DNA from: Candidatus Moraniibacteriota bacterium
GTDB taxonomy: Bacteria > Patescibacteriota > Minisyncoccia > Moranbacterales > UBA1568
Length of the DNA stretch: 64,000 nucleotides
Reading direction: 5' to 3'
Assembly (NCBI GenBank): GCA_963778555.1
Contig: CAVZUR010000004.1
Span: forward strand, 26,190 to 90,189
Below the pieces are notes generated by a model that saw nothing but the letters and a program-made list of their open reading frames with translations, did not search any database and was not told the origin of the DNA. Below, piece after piece: positions 6,943-55,040 of the stretch; position 1 is the first letter of the stretch; each line of letters starts with the position of its first letter. The position numbers and the translations under genes are program-made.

Positions 6943-8235
6943 TTATGATCGGCCGATGCCGTGATAGCGGACTCCGGAGCGCGCGAAATCTGACTTGCTG
7001 AAAGCGTTCTTGCCGTCAATGAAGATTTTTACCCCATGTTTTTTGAGGAGTTCAGGTGTTATTGTTTCGCGAAACTCACGGTGATCAGTCGCGAGGATGA
7101 CGGCGGTCGATTTCTTCAACAGATTGACCAGACGCTTTTCAGTCGAGTGGGACGGAACGTGTGGATCATGCGTGATGACGGTTGCGTGGTGTCGCTTGAG
7201 AGCCTCGATAATCTTGAGCGCTGGGGATTCCCGGCGATCATCGATATTCGCCTTGTACGCGATGCCGAGAACGCCTACGATCGTACCGTTCAGAGCCAGT
7301 CGTTCGTCATTTAGGGCATCCTGAAGCAGCTCGACCGCATAGGCCGGCATGCTGTTGTTGATTTCGCGCGCGATCTTTAGGAAGCGGTGATCAAAGCCAG
7401 ATTGTTTTGCACGCTCAATAAGGTAATAGGGGTCGACCGGGATGCAGTGTCCGCCGACGCCGCAGGACGGATAGTGGGCCATGAAAGCGAACGGCTTGGT
7501 CGCGGCGCCGTCGATGACGTCTTTCGTATCGATGCCGAGTACGTCGAAGGATTTGGCCAACTCATTCACGAACGCAATATTGATGTCGCGGAACGAGTTC
7601 TCAACGATCTTCACCGCCTCGGCTTCGCGGATGGATTTCATCGGTCGGATTTCAGCATCGACGATCGATTGGTAAAAATGCAGCGCCTTCTCAAGACCGG
7701 CGGCATCGAACGAGCCGACGACCCGCGGAATATTCGTCACGTTCCATTTCACATCACCGGGGTTGATGCGCTCCGGGCAATGAGCGATGGAAATGTCACG
7801 GCCCACCCGTTTGTTGTGGCTTTCGAAAATCGGCCGAATGATCTCTTCTGAAACGCCAGGATTGACCGTCGATTCCAGGACGACCAAGGCACCTTTTTTC
7901 GCATTGCGGGCAACGAGTTGAGAAGCGTTTATCACGGGGGCCAAGTCAGGGTAGAATGACTCATCGACTGGCGTCGGCACGCAGATGAGGAAGATATCCG
8001 CCGCGCGAAGCTCTTTTTCATCGGTTGTGGGCCGGAATTTGTACCGCTCGATGTTCTCCTTCAAAAAAGGGTCCTCAATAGGTGAGACACCTTTCCGGAG
8101 GAGCGCAATCTTCTCCCGGCTCGTATCGAAGCCGATGACTGAGTATCCGCGCTCGCTCGCTCGAAGTGCGAGGGGAAGACCGACATAACCAAGGCCGATG
8201 ACGGCCACTGTTTCTTTCTTTGCCATAGAGACCAT
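6943..8235 (-). CDS. UDP-glucose/GDP-mannose 6-dehydrogenase family nucleotide-sugar dehydrogenase (Ugd/WecC-like)
   Basis: NAD-binding VAVIGLGYVGLP, catalytic Cys in GGHCIPVDP, and a typical three-domain length of 430 aa. Confidence 0.85.
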   Translation of the reverse strand: MVSMAKKETVAVIGLGYVGLPLALRASERGYSVIGFDTSREKIALLRKGVSPIEDPFLKENIERYKFRPTTDEKELRAADIFLICVPTPVDESFYPDLAPVINASQLVARNAKKGALVVLESTVNPGVSEEIIRPIFESHNKRVGRDISIAHCPERINPGDVKWNVTNIPRVVGSFDAAGLEKALHFYQSIVDAEIRPMKSIREAEAVKIVENSFRDINIAFVNELAKSFDVLGIDTKDVIDGAATKPFAFMAHYPSCGVGGHCIPVDPYYLIERAKQSGFDHRFLKIAREINNSMPAYAVELLQDALNDERLALNGTIVGVLGIAYKANIDDRRESPALKIIEALKRHHATVITHDPHVPSHSTEKRLVNLLKKSTAVILATDHREFRETITPELLKKHGVKIFIDGKNAFSKSDFARSGVRYHGIGRS

Positions 8236-16588: not shown

Positions 16589-16615
16589 TTAGCACTCTCT
16601 TGACGAGTCTGCTAA
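16589..16615 (+). promoter_or_regulatory. CIRCE-like HrcA operator with embedded promoter upstream of groES
   Basis: TTAGCACTC-N9-GTCTGCTAA (right arm 7/9 to GAGTGCTAA). TTGACG in the spacer plus a TACACT 17 nt downstream form a sigma70-like promoter, the same layout as at hrcA. Confidence 0.55.
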
Positions 16616-16660: not shown

Positions 16661-16948
16661 ATGTCCAAAAGAATTCGTATTCAACCCCTTGGGGAGAATG
16701 TGCTCGTGAAAATCGAAGCGAAGGAGAAGAAGACAGCATCAGGTCTGTATCTGCCGGAAACTAACTCAGGTGAGCGGGAACAGCAAGGGACAGTCGTAGC
16801 GATCGGCTCTGATAAGGAAATCAAGGTGAAGCCCGGTAGTGTGGTCATTTTCAAACGGTACGGCACGAGCGAAGAGCTCAAGCTAGCCGGCGTTGATCAT
16901 ATCTTGCTCAATTATAAGGACGTCCTCGCTGTCGTCCTCTCGAAATGA
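16661..16948 (+). CDS. groES: Co-chaperonin GroES (Cpn10)
   Basis: 95 aa, MSKRIRIQPLGENVLVKIEAKEKKTASGLYLPE...VVIFKRYGTSEELKL. No groEL follows; the next gene is on the other strand. Confidence 0.9.
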   Translation: MSKRIRIQPLGENVLVKIEAKEKKTASGLYLPETNSGEREQQGTVVAIGSDKEIKVKPGSVVIFKRYGTSEELKLAGVDHILLNYKDVLAVVLSK

Positions 16949-26112: not shown

Positions 26113-26538
26113 ATGTCTTCTTCGAACAATGCGTTGCCGCAAGCTGCAGCGGGATTTTTATTTTGTTCCAAGACAAAACGAGTCCTCCTGCATCAGCGCG
26201 ACGGACAGACCGCTATCAATCCGCACAAGTGGGCATTCTTTACCGGTCTCGTCGAAGGGGATGAATCCCCGCTTCAGGCTTTTATCAGAGAGGTCGCCGA
26301 AGAGATTGGTTATGCACTCACGCTTGAGCAAGTGCATAAGCTCGATAGGTATTTGAATACTGAACGCCAGACGATGCGCCATGTCTTCGTCGCTGCTGTC
26401 AATTCAGAATTTCTCCCCTCAGCAGTCAATGAAGGTGCCGACGTCGGCTGGTTTACCCTGACAGAGGCTTGGTCATTAGATCTGACACATCTCACCAAAC
26501 GGGATTTAAAGAAGTTTTCTGTTCGATGCAATATGTGA
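26113..26538 (+). CDS. NUDIX hydrolase
   Basis: Nudix box GLVEGDESPLQAFIREVAEEIGY matches GX5EX7REUXEEXGU. Confidence 0.75.
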   Translation: MSSSNNALPQAAAGFLFCSKTKRVLLHQRDGQTAINPHKWAFFTGLVEGDESPLQAFIREVAEEIGYALTLEQVHKLDRYLNTERQTMRHVFVAAVNSEFLPSAVNEGADVGWFTLTEAWSLDLTHLTKRDLKKFSVRCNM

Positions 26539-48905: not shown

Positions 48906-49016
48906 ATGGGTGAGTGGTTAGGGGTTAGTTACTAGAGGTTAGGGGTGAGAAAAGTGCACTTATAAAACTCATCCGAAGAGAAAGGCAGGGAACGTCCCCT
49001 GCCTCTATCCTACTCT

Positions 49017-50969
<1,953 letters not shown>

Positions 50970-51064: not shown

Positions 51065-51478
51065 TTACTTCGCGTCCGAGACCTGAACGGCGATCTTCTT
51101 CGGCTTCACGGATTCCTCCTTGGGCATCGTGATGGTGAGAACGCCCTTATCGTACTTGGCTTGGGCGTCATTCCCTTTCACGGCCATCGGGAGGACAACC
51201 GAGCGCGAGAAGCTGCCCGTGCGGACTTCCTTGCGATAATAGTCCTCACGCTTCACTTCCGATTTGCTCTCGGTCGATCCGGTTACGGTCAGGACATCGT
51301 TTTCGATAGTGATGTCGACCCGACTCGGATCGATCCCGGGGAGCGCGAGTTCGGTCACGACGCTGTCTTTGTCCTGATAGACATCAAGCGCTGGATAGAA
51401 ATCGCTCTGTCCGAGGAACTCATCACCGAAGAATCGGCTGAGCTCCTGGGCTGGGAATGGTATGAGATGGCGTGTCAT
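51065..51478 (-). CDS. Hsp20/alpha-crystallin family small heat-shock protein
   Basis: ALDVYQDKDSVVTELALPGIDPSRVDITIENDVLTVTGS...SFSRSVVLP; SD aaggaggtga. Confidence 0.85.
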   Translation of the reverse strand: MTRHLIPFPAQELSRFFGDEFLGQSDFYPALDVYQDKDSVVTELALPGIDPSRVDITIENDVLTVTGSTESKSEVKREDYYRKEVRTGSFSRSVVLPMAVKGNDAQAKYDKGVLTITMPKEESVKPKKIAVQVSDAK

Positions 51479-51524: not shown

Positions 51525-52421
51525 TTAGCTGACGATAACTTTGGCTGGCCGCACCAGCTTGCCTTTGATCTGGTAGCCTTTCTGAACAACTTTTTCGATT
51601 TTCAATTGTTTGCTCGCTTCCCCTTCAGTGGCTTTGTGATCGAGCGCTTCATGACGGGTCGGATCGAATAGGTCCCCTGGTTTCACCTCGAGCGGCTCGA
51701 CACCGTAGTTTCGGAGCACATCCTCGAATTGCTTTTCGATATAGGTGATGCCCGTGACCCAAGGACTGCCGGCCGCTTCGGACGGGACATGCTCAGTGGC
51801 AGCGTGGAAATTATCGAGGACCGGGATGAGTTCGGTGACGATCTGAGCCGAGAGATGACCGTACAGTTCACGTTCGTCATTCTTCACCCGCTTCTTGTAA
51901 TTTTCGTAGTCGGCCCGGAGACGCTGCACATCCGGGAGGTATTGGCTTTGCGCATAGATGTTGGCCGCCGTTTCGACGAAGCGCTTCACCCACGGACGAT
52001 AATCACTCACTGCCTGGACTTCTTCCCGCGTCTGCCACTGGTATTCACTATGTTCATCGGAAAGAGTGATAGCGCCACCCCGATAGAGGACAAGGAAACC
52101 CTGCATCAGCGTTTGTTTGCCCGGCTGGCCGATTGCCTCCGTATCGACGACACCGACGATTTCATATTTCAGTGCATGACCGGCCTCTTCGCGGATCTCG
52201 CGCTCGAAGGCGGCTGCCGGCTCTTCTCCAGCGTCGATGCGGCCGCCGATGAAGCCCCAGTTCTCCTCTCGACCCGGCTTCGAATCCTTCACGAGAAGGA
52301 ACTTCTGAATCATCGGATCGAACAAGATAGCCTTCTGTCCGACTTGGTACTGCTCCATGGCTACGGATTGATTTTTTTTCATAGGGATATTGGGTTTAGA
52401 CGTATATGACAAGAAAGACAA
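51525..52421 (-). CDS. grpE: Nudix-hydrolase–GrpE fusion protein (nucleotide exchange factor with N-terminal Nudix domain)
   Basis: One 298-aa frame. Residues about 20-150 form a Nudix domain with a canonical Nudix box GGRIDAGEEPAAAFEREIREEAGH. Residues about 150-298 are GrpE (RADYENYKKR...LIPVLDNFHAA...GYQIKGKLVRPAKVIVS). It overlaps the hrcA 3' end by 26 nt. Confidence 0.8.
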   Translation of the reverse strand: MSFLSYTSKPNIPMKKNQSVAMEQYQVGQKAILFDPMIQKFLLVKDSKPGREENWGFIGGRIDAGEEPAAAFEREIREEAGHALKYEIVGVVDTEAIGQPGKQTLMQGFLVLYRGGAITLSDEHSEYQWQTREEVQAVSDYRPWVKRFVETAANIYAQSQYLPDVQRLRADYENYKKRVKNDERELYGHLSAQIVTELIPVLDNFHAATEHVPSEAAGSPWVTGITYIEKQFEDVLRNYGVEPLEVKPGDLFDPTRHEALDHKATEGEASKQLKIEKVVQKGYQIKGKLVRPAKVIVS

Positions 52422-53142
52422 TGAGTGATGAGCTGAGAAGTTTTTTCATGTGCTCAATGAGTGATTTGTTTTTGGCATACTCCATCCGTTTCGGTCCGAT
52501 GATGGCGAGCATGCCGCGCTCTCCGTCGCGGTCCCGGTACGGTGAAATGACCATAGCGCAGTTTTCGATGCCCGCCACCGGATTCTCGCCCCCGATATAG
52601 ATGCGCGTCTCGCCGTCTTTCAATCCCGCCATGAGAATATCGATCTTCTCATCAAGCGTGTCGAGGGTTTCGACCAAGCGCGATAGCTCATCCATTTCCT
52701 GGAATTCAGGACTCTCCATGAGAGACTTCATGCCGAAGTCATACATCTCGTCTTTGCCTGCCATGCCTGAGACACCAAGATTGCCGGAGAGGACCGAAAG
52801 GAGCCGGGCCGTCGTCCGCACCGTGCGATTGTGCTTGGCCTTGAGAATCAAAAATTCTTCCTGGAGTTTCAGCTGATCCTTTTTGGACAGTGGCTTGTCT
52901 CCCATCATCTCTTCAACGTAGTAGCGATAGCCCGCGTCAGTCGGGATGCGGCCCGCGGACGTGTGCGGCTGGTAAAGGTAGCCGCGTTCCTCCAGGGCGA
53001 GCATATCATTGCGTAGTGTCGCCGAACTCACTGGAAAATGATGCCGCTCGAGGAGCGCTTCCGAACCGACCGGTTCGGCAGTTTTGGTATAGAGCTCGAC
53101 GACGGCCGCGAGCACTTCTTTTTGGCGGTCATTCATATCCAT
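52396..53142 (-). CDS. hrcA: Heat-inducible transcription repressor HrcA
   Basis: N-terminal wHTH (RQKEVLAAVVELYTKTAEPVGSEAL) and the HrcA C-terminal domain. Preferred start is ATG 53142 (MDMNDRQ); the track's GTG at 53169 lies inside CIRCE. Confidence 0.85.
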   Translation of the reverse strand: MDMNDRQKEVLAAVVELYTKTAEPVGSEALLERHHFPVSSATLRNDMLALEERGYLYQPHTSAGRIPTDAGYRYYVEEMMGDKPLSKKDQLKLQEEFLILKAKHNRTVRTTARLLSVLSGNLGVSGMAGKDEMYDFGMKSLMESPEFQEMDELSRLVETLDTLDEKIDILMAGLKDGETRIYIGGENPVAGIENCAMVISPYRDRDGERGMLAIIGPKRMEYAKNKSLIEHMKKLLSSSLIVFLVIYV

Positions 53143-53148
53143 GTCCCT

Positions 53149-53189
53149 AGTATAAAAAGCGTTTAGCACTCTGTCAAGTAGAGTGCTAA
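53149..53189 (-). promoter_or_regulatory. Perfect CIRCE operator (53163..53189) overlapping the hrcA promoter
   Basis: TTAGCACTC-tgtcaagta-GAGTGCTAA is a perfect 9-N9-9 inverted repeat. On the transcribed strand, TTGACA in the spacer plus TATACT 18 nt downstream give a sigma70-like promoter with the hrcA ATG 6 nt after the -10, which implies a leaderless transcript and autorepression by promoter occlusion. Confidence 0.8.
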
Positions 53190-53794: not shown

Positions 53795-54049
53795 TTAAGG
53801 TGTTCCTTCGGGCGTTTTGACCGGGTCATACCCGCCCTCGGACCATGGTTGGCAGCGGAGAATCCGTTTGAATCCCATCCACCCTCCTCGGAGCACGCCA
53901 AACCGTTCGATCGCTTGGTAGGTATACTCGGAGCAAGTCGGATGAAAGCGGCAGAACCGCTCGGAAACAATGAGACCGAGAAGGCCATGATTCAACGAGA
54001 GCGTCCGTTGATAGAGACGAATCAGGGCCAGCACAGATGTTTTCAGCAT
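53795..54049 (-). CDS. yidD: Membrane protein insertion efficiency factor YidD
   Basis: [69 protein letters not shown]. The track's N-terminal extension (antisense of corA) is not credible; start ATG 54049. It is not flanked by rnpA or yidC. Confidence 0.8.
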
Positions 54050-54127
54050 GGCAAGAGGATATCCTGATTTTCGGCCTTTGTCAACGGAAAAAGAGCTGAT
54101 ATACTCAGTATAAAGAGCAAAATAAAC

Positions 54128-55040
54128 ATGCGAACCCTCGAGCATAAGCACATCACGTGGATTGATTTTGACTCGCCGACAAAGGACGATGTCACCTATC
54201 TTCACGAGAATTTCAATATCCACCCCCTCGTCCTCGAGGAGCTGATTACGCCGACCTATCAGCCGAAAGTTCTGCAGTATGACAGCTGCCTTTTTTTCTC
54301 TATACACATTCCCCTGTTTGATGTGAAGGAGCGGACGACGTATGCTGGCGAGCTCGATATCATCCTGACCAAAGACCACCTGATCACCGCCCATCGCCAT
54401 CCAATCTATCAGATCGGGAAATTTTTCGGTGAATTGGAGAACAGCGAGGGCAAACGCCGACTCCACATGGAAGAGACTCCGACCCACGTCCTGTATCACC
54501 TGCTCGAGATCCTTCTCAATTCCTGTTTTCCCAAACTCCGCCACATATCGGAAAAGATCGACTATATCGAGACGGAAGTCTTTGCCGGGCATGAAAAGGA
54601 GATGGTGTTCGAAATCTCTCTCGTGAAGCGCGATATACTAAATTTCCGCCGTACGCTCAAGCCCCAACGTTCGCTCATCGAGAGTCTCCTCGCCACCAAG
54701 CATCCCTTCATCCCGGCCAACCTCCAGGCGTACTTCCAAGATCTGATCGGTACGAATGTCCGCGTCTGGAATATGCTGGAAAGCAACAAGGAAACGATCG
54801 AGGCGTTCGAGGCGACCAACAATTCGCTCCTCTCGAACAAGATCGAGCAAACGATAAAGGTGCTCACTATATTTTCAGCCGTCATCCTCCCCCTCACGGT
54901 CTACTCGAATGCAATGTCGATGAATACCCGCCACCTGCCATTTGAGAACAGCGACCGGCGGTTTTTGGCTCCATCTCACCACAATGATTTTTATCTCTGC
55001 CTTTACGATCGTCATCTTCCGAATGAAGCGCTGGATCTAA
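54128..55040 (+). CDS. corA: Magnesium transporter CorA, frameshifted near 54960
   Basis: CorA cytoplasmic domain and TM1 ([16 protein letters not shown]) read in the listed frame. The GMN-motif region is degenerate (YSNAMSMN), and TM2 plus the basic tail ([27 protein letters not shown]) are in the +1 frame ending at 55040. Putative TTGTCA-16-TATACT promoter upstream. Confidence 0.65.

Follow-up and report, generated by a model that had tools for sequence, protein, structure and literature searches.

A Nudix domain fused to GrpE in the HrcA/CIRCE heat-shock operon of Moranbacteria-type Patescibacteria

Here we describe nudix::grpE, a gene in which a Nudix hydrolase domain is fused in frame to GrpE, the nucleotide-exchange factor of the Hsp70 chaperone DnaK. 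It lies in the heat-shock operon of a 64,000-nucleotide (nt) stretch of Candidatus Moraniibacteriota DNA (assembly GCA_963778555.1, contig CAVZUR010000004.1, positions 26,190–90,189 of the forward strand), which we call the window. Both domains occupy one real frame, the fusion is conserved, its catalytic and DnaK-contact residues are under purifying selection, and a fixed junction carries a Nudix head that is swappable. To judge from the sequences and structural models, we consider it moderately probable that the product is a bifunctional heat-shock protein, a normal GrpE bearing an active stress-nucleotide pyrophosphatase head, with both parts made together under the control of the repressor HrcA and its operator CIRCE (controlling inverted repeat of chaperone expression).

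GrpE is among the best-studied co-chaperones, and its N-terminal tail and stalk are debated as couplers of nucleotide exchange to client release and temperature. The lineage described here has swapped the tail for a folded, apparently active nucleotide pyrophosphatase and its close relatives keep the tail, which amounts to a natural experiment on what the tail does. That diadenosine tetraphosphate (Ap4A) rises on heat shock and binds DnaK has been known for decades, without a clear mechanism, and we know of no earlier genomic guilt-by-association link between a Nudix enzyme and the Hsp70 machine. Should the two halves work independently, the locus would still place a Nudix hydrolase within the minimal heat-shock regulon of these ultra-small bacteria.

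Each domain comes from a well-known family; what seems to be undescribed is their combination. Full-text literature searches aimed at the fusion, at Ap4A and at the GrpE tail found no description of a Nudix–GrpE architecture, and the words ‘Nudix’, ‘fused’ and ‘fusion’ are absent from a 2025 review of GrpE-like factors. The original prediction, a reading of the DNA letters that this analysis followed up, knew of no earlier description of the architecture. This holds for the literature found, but fused proteins are already present in public databases, where those with names are labelled only ‘GrpE’.

One reading frame encodes both domains

The open frame runs on the minus strand from a TTG at 52421 to a stop codon at 51525..51527 and spans 298 amino acids (aa), the length originally predicted. 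That frame exists, but its TTG start is unlikely: it overlaps the 3′ end of hrcA (stop 52396..52398), and homologues and gene calls begin at or after the ATG. The likelier starts on sequence grounds are the first ATG, 52382, which gives 285 aa (MKKNQ...), or the second, 52358, which gives 277 aa (MEQYQ...). Database protein P0001 is the 277-aa form and is 100% identical. Residues are counted here from ATG 52382 unless the 298-aa frame is named.

Searched separately, both halves score above their Pfam cut-offs. NUDIX (PF00293) matches aa 28–147 of the 298-aa frame (57 bits, cut-off 21; E = 2.5e-15) and GrpE (PF01025) matches aa 163–298 of the same frame (117.8 bits, cut-off 25.8; E = 5e-34). 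The GrpE match covers positions 32–164 of the 165 in the profile and leaves positions 1–31 unmatched; in the alignment, the first part of the canonical profile is replaced by Nudix sequence. The original prediction spoke of a complete C-terminal GrpE region. Its DnaK-binding residues are indeed kept, but the 31 unmatched positions had been overlooked. All 25 of the NCBIfam GrpE equivalog models listed stay under their cut-offs (the best, NF010750, at 89 bits against 194), because each model aligns over its C-terminal two thirds only and its N-terminal third has no counterpart.

A word-indexed protein search returned 583 homologues, the best 120 of which were scanned with Pfam; 98 full-length proteins among these carry both NUDIX and GrpE, at 38–79% identity to the window protein. 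In an independent assembly (L001; Logan ERR11593397), the nudix-grpE open reading frame (ORF) is identical, with one single-nucleotide polymorphism (SNP) in the 2.2 kb of hrcA-grpE-hsp20. We looked there for a stop or frameshift that would separate the halves and found the same gene. The frame is therefore genuine, and a sequencing or assembly artefact, whether frameshift or read-through, is ruled out by the identical gene in L001 and the 98 two-domain homologues.

The Nudix half keeps its catalytic residues

The Nudix box had been predicted to be a full match to the family pattern. It does fit GX5EX7REUXEEXG, but the final U position is occupied by His rather than Ile, Leu or Val. The catalytic residues are present, as predicted, and 89–100% conserved in the 98 fusion proteins: G47, R61, E65 and E66 are found in 100%, G68 in 98% and E53 in 97%, and position 62 is Glu in 89% and Asp in 11%. 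Downstream of the box, E110 is invariant; we take it to be the counterpart of E98, an additional metal ligand of MutT. The ratio of nonsynonymous to synonymous substitution rates (dN/dS) for orthologous Nudix pairs is 0.07 (L008/L011), 0.15 (L017/L019) and 0.07 (the window against the free copy in locus L086), and that for the GrpE halves is 0.03–0.11. On these sequences, the Nudix head is apparently catalytically competent.

In the AlphaFold model of the window protein (predicted local distance difference test (pLDDT) score of 88 overall and 88–98 in the head), the head adopts a Nudix fold, with small MutT-, Ap4A/Ap6A-hydrolase-, NudI- and RppH-like enzymes as its nearest neighbours. The genome has at least one further Nudix hydrolase, because a stand-alone gene at 26113..26538 on the plus strand encodes a 141-aa protein with an intact Nudix box, GLVEGDESPLQAFIREVAEEIGY.

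The GrpE half resembles a working exchange factor

Over their whole length, the C-terminal 138 aa align with solved GrpE structures (PDB 4ani, 8gb3, 3a6m and 1dkg; E 1e-15 to 3e-10), and a window residue number minus 90 gives the corresponding residue of both Escherichia coli and Mycobacterium tuberculosis GrpE. The AlphaFold2 (AF2) model of the window protein places helices at 130–197 and 207–225 and beta-strands at 228–284 (pLDDT 75–91), a layout that recurs in the fusion protein P0013.

The residues that bind DnaK are kept, as the original prediction held, both in the alignments to solved GrpE and as conserved columns among the 98 sequences: R154, N161 and R165 are invariant, with K163 and K164 conserved in at least 90%. 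Together, R154, N161, K163, K164 and R165 correspond to R64, N71, R73, K74 and R75, five of the six residues of the Mut-1 patch of M. tuberculosis GrpE; the sixth, R78, is Asn168 in the window protein. When the six-residue patch is mutated in M. tuberculosis GrpE, DnaK binding, nucleotide exchange and viability are lost (PMC10803776). G211, equivalent to G122 of E. coli, is also invariant. Taken as a sequence, the GrpE half looks like a working exchange factor.

The head takes the place of the GrpE tail

In both AlphaFold models the two domains are joined by a single 68-residue helix, at residues 130–197 in the window protein, which has a type-A head, and at 142–209 in P0013, which has a type-B head. 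The first ~17 residues of this helix are the ordinary C-terminal helix of a Nudix domain, and it is there that the free copy P0121, from L086, stops. The spacing from W131 to A157 is 26 aa in 98 of 98 sequences, with no indels at the junction; the loop inside the Nudix domain between E66 and E110 ranges from 38 to 50 residues. Subtracting 90 places residue 130 at E. coli residue 40, and the E. coli stalk in 1DKG presumably starts at about residues 34–40. On this basis the Nudix head is, in the models, a replacement for the disordered GrpE tail that also forms the beginning of the stalk. The AlphaFold model thus bears out the suggestion that the head sits where the N-terminal tail normally does, continuous with the stalk.

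The leader that precedes the Nudix domain in the fusion proteins has a median length of 14 aa, and an IIM-like motif, defined as the triplet I-[IVL]-[MLI], occurs in it in 0 of 98. In E. coli GrpE the tail motif 17-IIM-19 binds the substrate-binding domain (SBD) of DnaK, and unfolding of the stalk confers temperature dependence (PMC12915176). In M. tuberculosis GrpE, the beta-domain opens the nucleotide cleft and the N-terminal end of the stalk is SBD-proximal (PMC10803776). The head ends seven residues before the DnaK-docking patch and, as far as monomer models and homologous complexes allow us to place it, should sit by the SBD and the interdomain linker, away from the nucleotide cleft.

This geometry disfavours a direct form of the coupling raised in the original prediction, in which the head hydrolyses ADP or ATP released from DnaK, or an adenine nucleotide bound to it, and thereby drives or biases exchange. 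The proposal draws on the presence of an exchange factor and a nucleotide pyrophosphatase in one polypeptide, on the ability of some Nudix enzymes to take nucleoside diphosphates or triphosphates (NDPs or NTPs), and on fold neighbours that include NTP pyrophosphohydrolases. However, the head would lie at the far N-terminal end of the stalk, opposite the cleft-opening beta-domain, which lies at least 110 residues downstream, and at least 40 helical residues, or ~60 Å as estimated from helix rise, would separate it from the bundle. Free ADP would diffuse off, with no channelling over such a distance; near-identical GrpE proteins work without a head; and wholesale degradation of ADP or ATP would be costly for a very small genome. 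We therefore regard direct coupling as very unlikely.

The junction could also be taken to mean that the Nudix fold is a pseudo-enzyme, a purely structural domain that dimerises or stabilises a shortened stalk: it supplies the start of the stalk helix, and many Nudix proteins are dimers. Such a cap is extremely improbable in our view, given that the catalytic residues are invariant in 98 sequences, that dN/dS is low, and that in unfused relatives the stretch in question is ordinary GrpE sequence.

The fusion is conserved in Moranbacteria-type loci

We surveyed one genome per GTDB species and found the fusion in 20 of the best 80 loci returned, always in the order hrcA, nudix::grpE, (hsp20), dnaK; in one of the 20 (L034) the gene is split by a frameshift. 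Carriers with plausible labels are Candidatus Moranbacteria/Moraniibacteriota, Patescibacteria group and Parcubacteria group. Around 30 further Moranbacteria-type loci have an unfused grpE, and in ~30 loci from other phyla no Nudix gene lies within 6 kb. The phyletic check thus returned a recurrent gene, always between hrcA and dnaK, and the impression of a rare or unique architecture did not survive it: the fusion is conserved in many Moranbacteria-type Patescibacteria.

An exhaustive homology search with the Nudix head alone formed the basis of a wider census and yielded 44 representatives at E ≤ 1e-10. Ten of the top matches, scanned with Pfam, comprise free Nudix proteins (150–208 aa), Nudix–GrpE proteins, one Nudix–Nudix–GrpE protein and one di-Nudix protein.

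Many fusion-bearing metagenome-assembled genomes in GTDB (loci L006–L033) are labelled ‘uncultured Bdellovibrionales’, ‘Micavibrio’, ‘Candidatus Fimivivens’ or ‘Bathyarchaeia’. These labels look unreliable, because on the GrpE tree the hrcA-grpE-dnaK loci concerned fall among Moranbacteria.

The head is a swappable module

The unfused sister proteins P0041, P0052 and P0101 (loci L002, L003 and L007) are 73–82% identical to the window protein over the GrpE half and carry, where the head would be, an acidic low-complexity tail of 45–55 aa followed by an ordinary helix start. DNA homology between the window and these sisters is 78–88% on both sides and breaks exactly at the N-terminal module.

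Some relatives have two Nudix modules. In L086, hrcA is followed by a separate Nudix gene (P0121), then by a grpE gene that bears a different Nudix head, and then by dnaK. P0121 shares 64% identity with the window head, and its last helix is the same (YRPWVKRFVETAA...). Alignment of the window with L086 runs through hrcA and the separate Nudix gene and then resumes in the GrpE part, with the ~500 bp that contain the second head absent; in sequence, the window gene looks like the L086-type layout minus the second head. The same two-Nudix layout is found in a more distant lineage (L088), and in L019, P0118 and P0133 Nudix, Nudix and GrpE form one polypeptide. The two-Nudix operons lie at 8001..9305 in L086, 5001..6334 in L088, 5236..6789 in L019 and 1496..2845 in L090; L090 also has a DMP19-family gene between grpE and hsp20. 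One-polypeptide Nudix–Nudix–GrpE proteins are 447–518 aa long.

Heads also differ between closely related GrpE proteins. Of 25 pairs whose GrpE halves reach at least 90% identity, 7 have heads less than 50% identical, and the GrpE cluster of the window (21 proteins; at least 75% identity, single linkage) contains seven distinct head clusters. On the GrpE tree, fused proteins are interspersed with unfused ones. A single ancient fusion inherited vertically is not supported, given this interleaving, the discordant Nudix and GrpE identities and, in L009 against L010, a Nudix dS far above that of GrpE; the sequences suggest that modules were replaced, or that heads were lost differentially from a two-Nudix layout. 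Because the head is facultative, its place being taken by an acidic tail or another paralogue, or shared with an extra paralogue, the chaperone cycle would be independent of it.

We examined ~60 Patescibacteria-type loci for operon Nudix genes. A separate one was found only upstream of a Nudix–GrpE gene, in three assemblies from two lineages (L086/L087 and L088), and in none of these loci did a free Nudix gene adjoin an unfused grpE. The physical link between Nudix and GrpE therefore seems to matter.

These loci bear on whether the fusion is essentially neutral, the outcome of an operon Nudix gene losing its stop codon, with independent halves linked by co-expression only. Separate Nudix genes at the same position (P0121 in L086 and P0124 in L088) fit such an origin, as does the gain, loss and swapping of heads among close relatives, and co-transcription of the operon already secures co-expression. 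Nevertheless, the fusion persists down to 38% identity, the junction has never gained a linker or an indel, every free-Nudix locus keeps a fused copy, and a dimeric stalk would fix the geometry of the heads. A purely neutral fusion is made less likely by the indel-free junction and by the lack of any free Nudix gene beside an unfused grpE, and we rate it as quite unlikely.

A further possibility is that the head is mainly a ligand-binding, regulatory domain, with or without turnover, so that a stress nucleotide would alter stalk stability or SBD contacts, tune exchange and substrate release, and replace the pseudo-substrate mechanism of the tail. The single continuous helix and its indel-free junction would suit a nucleotide-sensing exchange factor, as would the short leader devoid of the SBD-binding motif that operates in the E. 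coli tail (PMC12915176) and the observation that an operon Nudix gene never occurs without a fused copy. Fully conserved catalytic Glu residues, on the other hand, argue for turnover rather than mere binding, and the exchange of heads less than 40% identical, or of an acidic tail, on near-identical GrpE bodies is hard to square with a finely tuned allosteric interface. We think sensing unlikely as the principal role of the head.

The operon and its neighbourhood

On the minus strand the gene order is hrcA, nudix-grpE, hsp20, dnaK, as originally read, and a perfect CIRCE element and a Pfam-matched hrcA gene confirm the HrcA/CIRCE heat-shock operon (Table 1). The winged-helix DNA-binding domain of hrcA gives a weaker Pfam match (19.4 bits, under the 21-bit cut-off). 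With up to three mismatches allowed, 0.01 chance matches to the CIRCE pattern are expected across the window. In the putative hrcA promoter, the −35 hexamer falls within the CIRCE loop, and 6 nt separate the end of the −10 hexamer from hrcA ATG 53142; because of this short distance, the operon mRNA is probably leaderless or nearly so. The nudix-grpE gene begins 13 nt past the hrcA stop, and a consensus scan found no convincing terminator between the operon genes on the minus strand.

Table 1. Features of the nudix::grpE operon, in window coordinates
Feature	Position	Strand	Description
nudix::grpE gene	51525..52382	-	285 aa from ATG 52382; from ORF list and Pfam, identical in P0001 and L001
Nudix domain	51942..52349	-	aa 12–147; minimal alpha/beta/alpha Nudix fold, ~135 aa
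Nudix box G47–H69	52176..52244	-	GRIDAGEEPAAAFEREIREEAGH; matches GX5EX7REUXEEXG, last position His
Continuous helix, aa 130–197	51792..51995	-	Nudix C-terminal helix (130–147) running into GrpE stalk and first bundle helix, no linker; DSSP of AF2 model
GrpE part	51528..51941	-	aa 148–285; stalk helix with DnaK-binding basic patch, helix bundle, C-terminal beta-domain
hrcA repressor gene	52396..53142	-	248 aa from ATG 53142; Pfam HrcA C-terminal domain, L001 gene call
CIRCE operator	53163..53189		TTAGCACTC-N9-GAGTGCTAA; 0 mismatches
Putative sigma-70-like promoter	53149..53177	-	TTGACA-17-TATACT; 11/12 in consensus scan, presumed function
hsp20 small heat-shock protein gene	51065..51478	-	137 aa; Pfam HSP20, E 5e-20
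dnaK	49017..50951	-	interrupted by at least 6 single-base frameshifts; three-frame translation, comparison with L001
Terminator-like hairpin (weak)	48987..48999	-	directly 3′ of dnaK; consensus scan

The original prediction also found the gene order atypical, for its placement of hsp20 and its lack of dnaJ. The order is unremarkable in itself, because the hsp20 insertion is typical of the clade and dnaJ follows dnaK in at least one relative. Specifically, hsp20 lies between grpE and dnaK in 15 related loci, whether or not their grpE is fused, and so is a feature of the clade and not peculiar to nudix-grpE; in L088, dnaJ lies two genes downstream of dnaK. Probes with the L088 DnaJ and with an approximate E. 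coli DnaJ sequence did not find dnaJ in the 64-kb window.

The frameshifts in the window copy of dnaK had been overlooked. Over 430 bp of dnaK, L001 differs from the window by 4 one-base insertions and ~20 SNPs, as against the single SNP in the adjoining 2.2 kb, and in L001 (99% identical) the dnaK frame is open for its first 146 codons. This stretch of the contig looks strain-chimeric or poorly polished; alternatively, dnaK may have become a pseudogene very recently.

The closest relatives, fused and unfused, share a conserved small ORF of 42–45 aa between hrcA and grpE (2598..2726 in L003, 5861..5989 in L004 and 4356..4493 in L005), which is absent from the window. A second CIRCE-like element, with 2 mismatches, lies at 16589..16615 on the plus strand, directly upstream of groES (16661..16948). 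No groEL follows groES, and the next genes, on the opposite strand, are rhodanese-like, fmt-like and def. On the minus strand, 53795..54592 holds a 265-aa ORF whose C-terminal ~80 residues resemble YidD, a membrane protein insertion efficiency factor; the long extension on its N-terminal side may belong to a separate gene or to a frame joined in error.

A model for the bifunctional protein

The bifunctional heat-shock protein that we favour would be expressed from the CIRCE/HrcA-controlled promoter together with hrcA, hsp20 and dnaK. Its C-terminal part, aa 148–285, would act as an ordinary dimeric GrpE that opens the nucleotide cleft of DnaK, and its N-terminal part, aa 12–147, would be a catalytically competent minimal Nudix pyrophosphohydrolase in place of the disordered tail. 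Because the last Nudix helix is continuous with the GrpE stalk helix, the head would be mounted rigidly at the N-terminal end of the stalk, just ahead of the basic patch with which GrpE docks onto subdomain IA of DnaK and onto the SBD. The GrpE dimer would dimerise the head, co-induce it and bring it to DnaK, and nucleotide exchange itself would be independent of it. The head would hydrolyse a stress-related nucleotide, most plausibly a dinucleoside polyphosphate such as Ap4A or a non-canonical ribo- or deoxyribonucleoside triphosphate. Ap4A is a plausible substrate because heat shock raises its level, it can be cross-linked to DnaK, GroEL and ClpB, and Nudix enzymes break it down (PMC10148737); this makes it no more than a lead.

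It is also conceivable, albeit doubtful, that the head, joined rigidly to the thermosensing stalk and placed next to the SBD, acts as a nucleotide gate that binds or hydrolyses an alarmone such as Ap4A and sets exchange and client release through stalk stability or SBD contacts. Alarmone levels would then be physically tied to the Hsp70 cycle, and the rapid swapping of head paralogues would amount to retuning of that input.

Several observations weigh against the bifunctional reading. Judged by its distribution in sequence, the head is dispensable in evolution, with syntenic GrpE relatives of ~80% identity carrying an acidic tail. The GrpE halves of L009 and L010 are 96% identical (dS 0.75) and their Nudix halves 37% (dS 2.3), which indicates heads that are non-orthologous rather than fast-drifting. 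The structural models are of monomers, so that dimerisation of the heads and their placement with respect to DnaK are extrapolated. With its frameshifted dnaK, this assembly may encode a defective partner. Finally, the best PDB sequence match to the Nudix head has a marginal E value of 3e-4, and markers of substrate specificity are lacking. Nudix subfamilies are recognised by a Pro ~15–16 aa past the box (ADP-ribose), a Tyr 16–18 aa past the box (Ap4A), the sequence SQPWPFPxS (NADH) or a NuCoA motif before the box (coenzyme A). None of these ADP-ribose, Ap4A, NADH or coenzyme A markers is found in the head, although the test is a weak one; positions 84–87, past the Nudix box, read I-G-Q-P and are poorly conserved (2–3 out of 9). 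Assignment of the head to a subfamily failed, with PDB matches at that E value, mixed MutT, diadenosine polyphosphate (Ap(n)A), NudI and RppH fold neighbours, and no specificity motif. We lean mildly towards a substrate of the Ap(n)A or NTP type.

Comparison with known systems

By fold, the head is related to small single-domain Nudix hydrolases: 3GRN (MutT-related), 1VC8 (the Ap6A hydrolase Ndx1), 3I7U, 5CFI and 1KTG (Ap4A hydrolases), 3OGA (NudI), 5ZRC (MutT2), 3EES (BdRppH) and 3H95 (the NUDT6 domain). It is 16–25% identical to these solved enzymes and has no subfamily-specific motif. The C-terminal helix that ends the small Nudix hydrolases runs on for ~50 residues in the window protein, as the GrpE stalk and first bundle helix. 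To our knowledge, no characterised small Nudix hydrolase is fused to a co-chaperone.

Each half has a precedent for acquiring a partner. Anabaena All4144, which combines GrpE with a helix-turn-helix domain (bioRxiv 10.1101/2025.04.14.648684), is a precedent for an extra domain on GrpE, although the added domain differs, and the bifunctional NMN (nicotinamide mononucleotide) adenylyltransferase/ADP-ribose pyrophosphatase (PDB 2QJT) is a precedent for a Nudix domain fused to a functionally related partner, although the partner differs. Neither pairs a Nudix enzyme with an Hsp70 co-chaperone.

Nearer relatives frame the fusion on both sides. The unfused sister Moranbacteria (L002, L003 and L007) share the synteny of the window, cysS, corA, hrcA, grpE, (hsp20), dnaK. 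The separate operon Nudix genes of L086 and L088, between hrcA and grpE, encode stand-alone proteins of 142–150 aa, and after them comes a grpE gene with a second, different Nudix head, whereas the window gene has one head.

A further comparison is with canonical GrpE, as solved from E. coli (1DKG), M. tuberculosis (8GB3), Geobacillus kaustophilus (4ANI) and Thermus thermophilus (3A6M). The modelled window protein shares its stalk helix, bundle and beta-domain, the same DnaK-contact residues and the same position in an hrcA-grpE-dnaK operon. The disordered N-terminal tail of canonical GrpE (~33 aa in E. coli, with the IIM motif) is missing from the window protein, and the start of the stalk, which in canonical GrpE is GrpE’s own, comes for its first ~17 residues from the folded Nudix domain.

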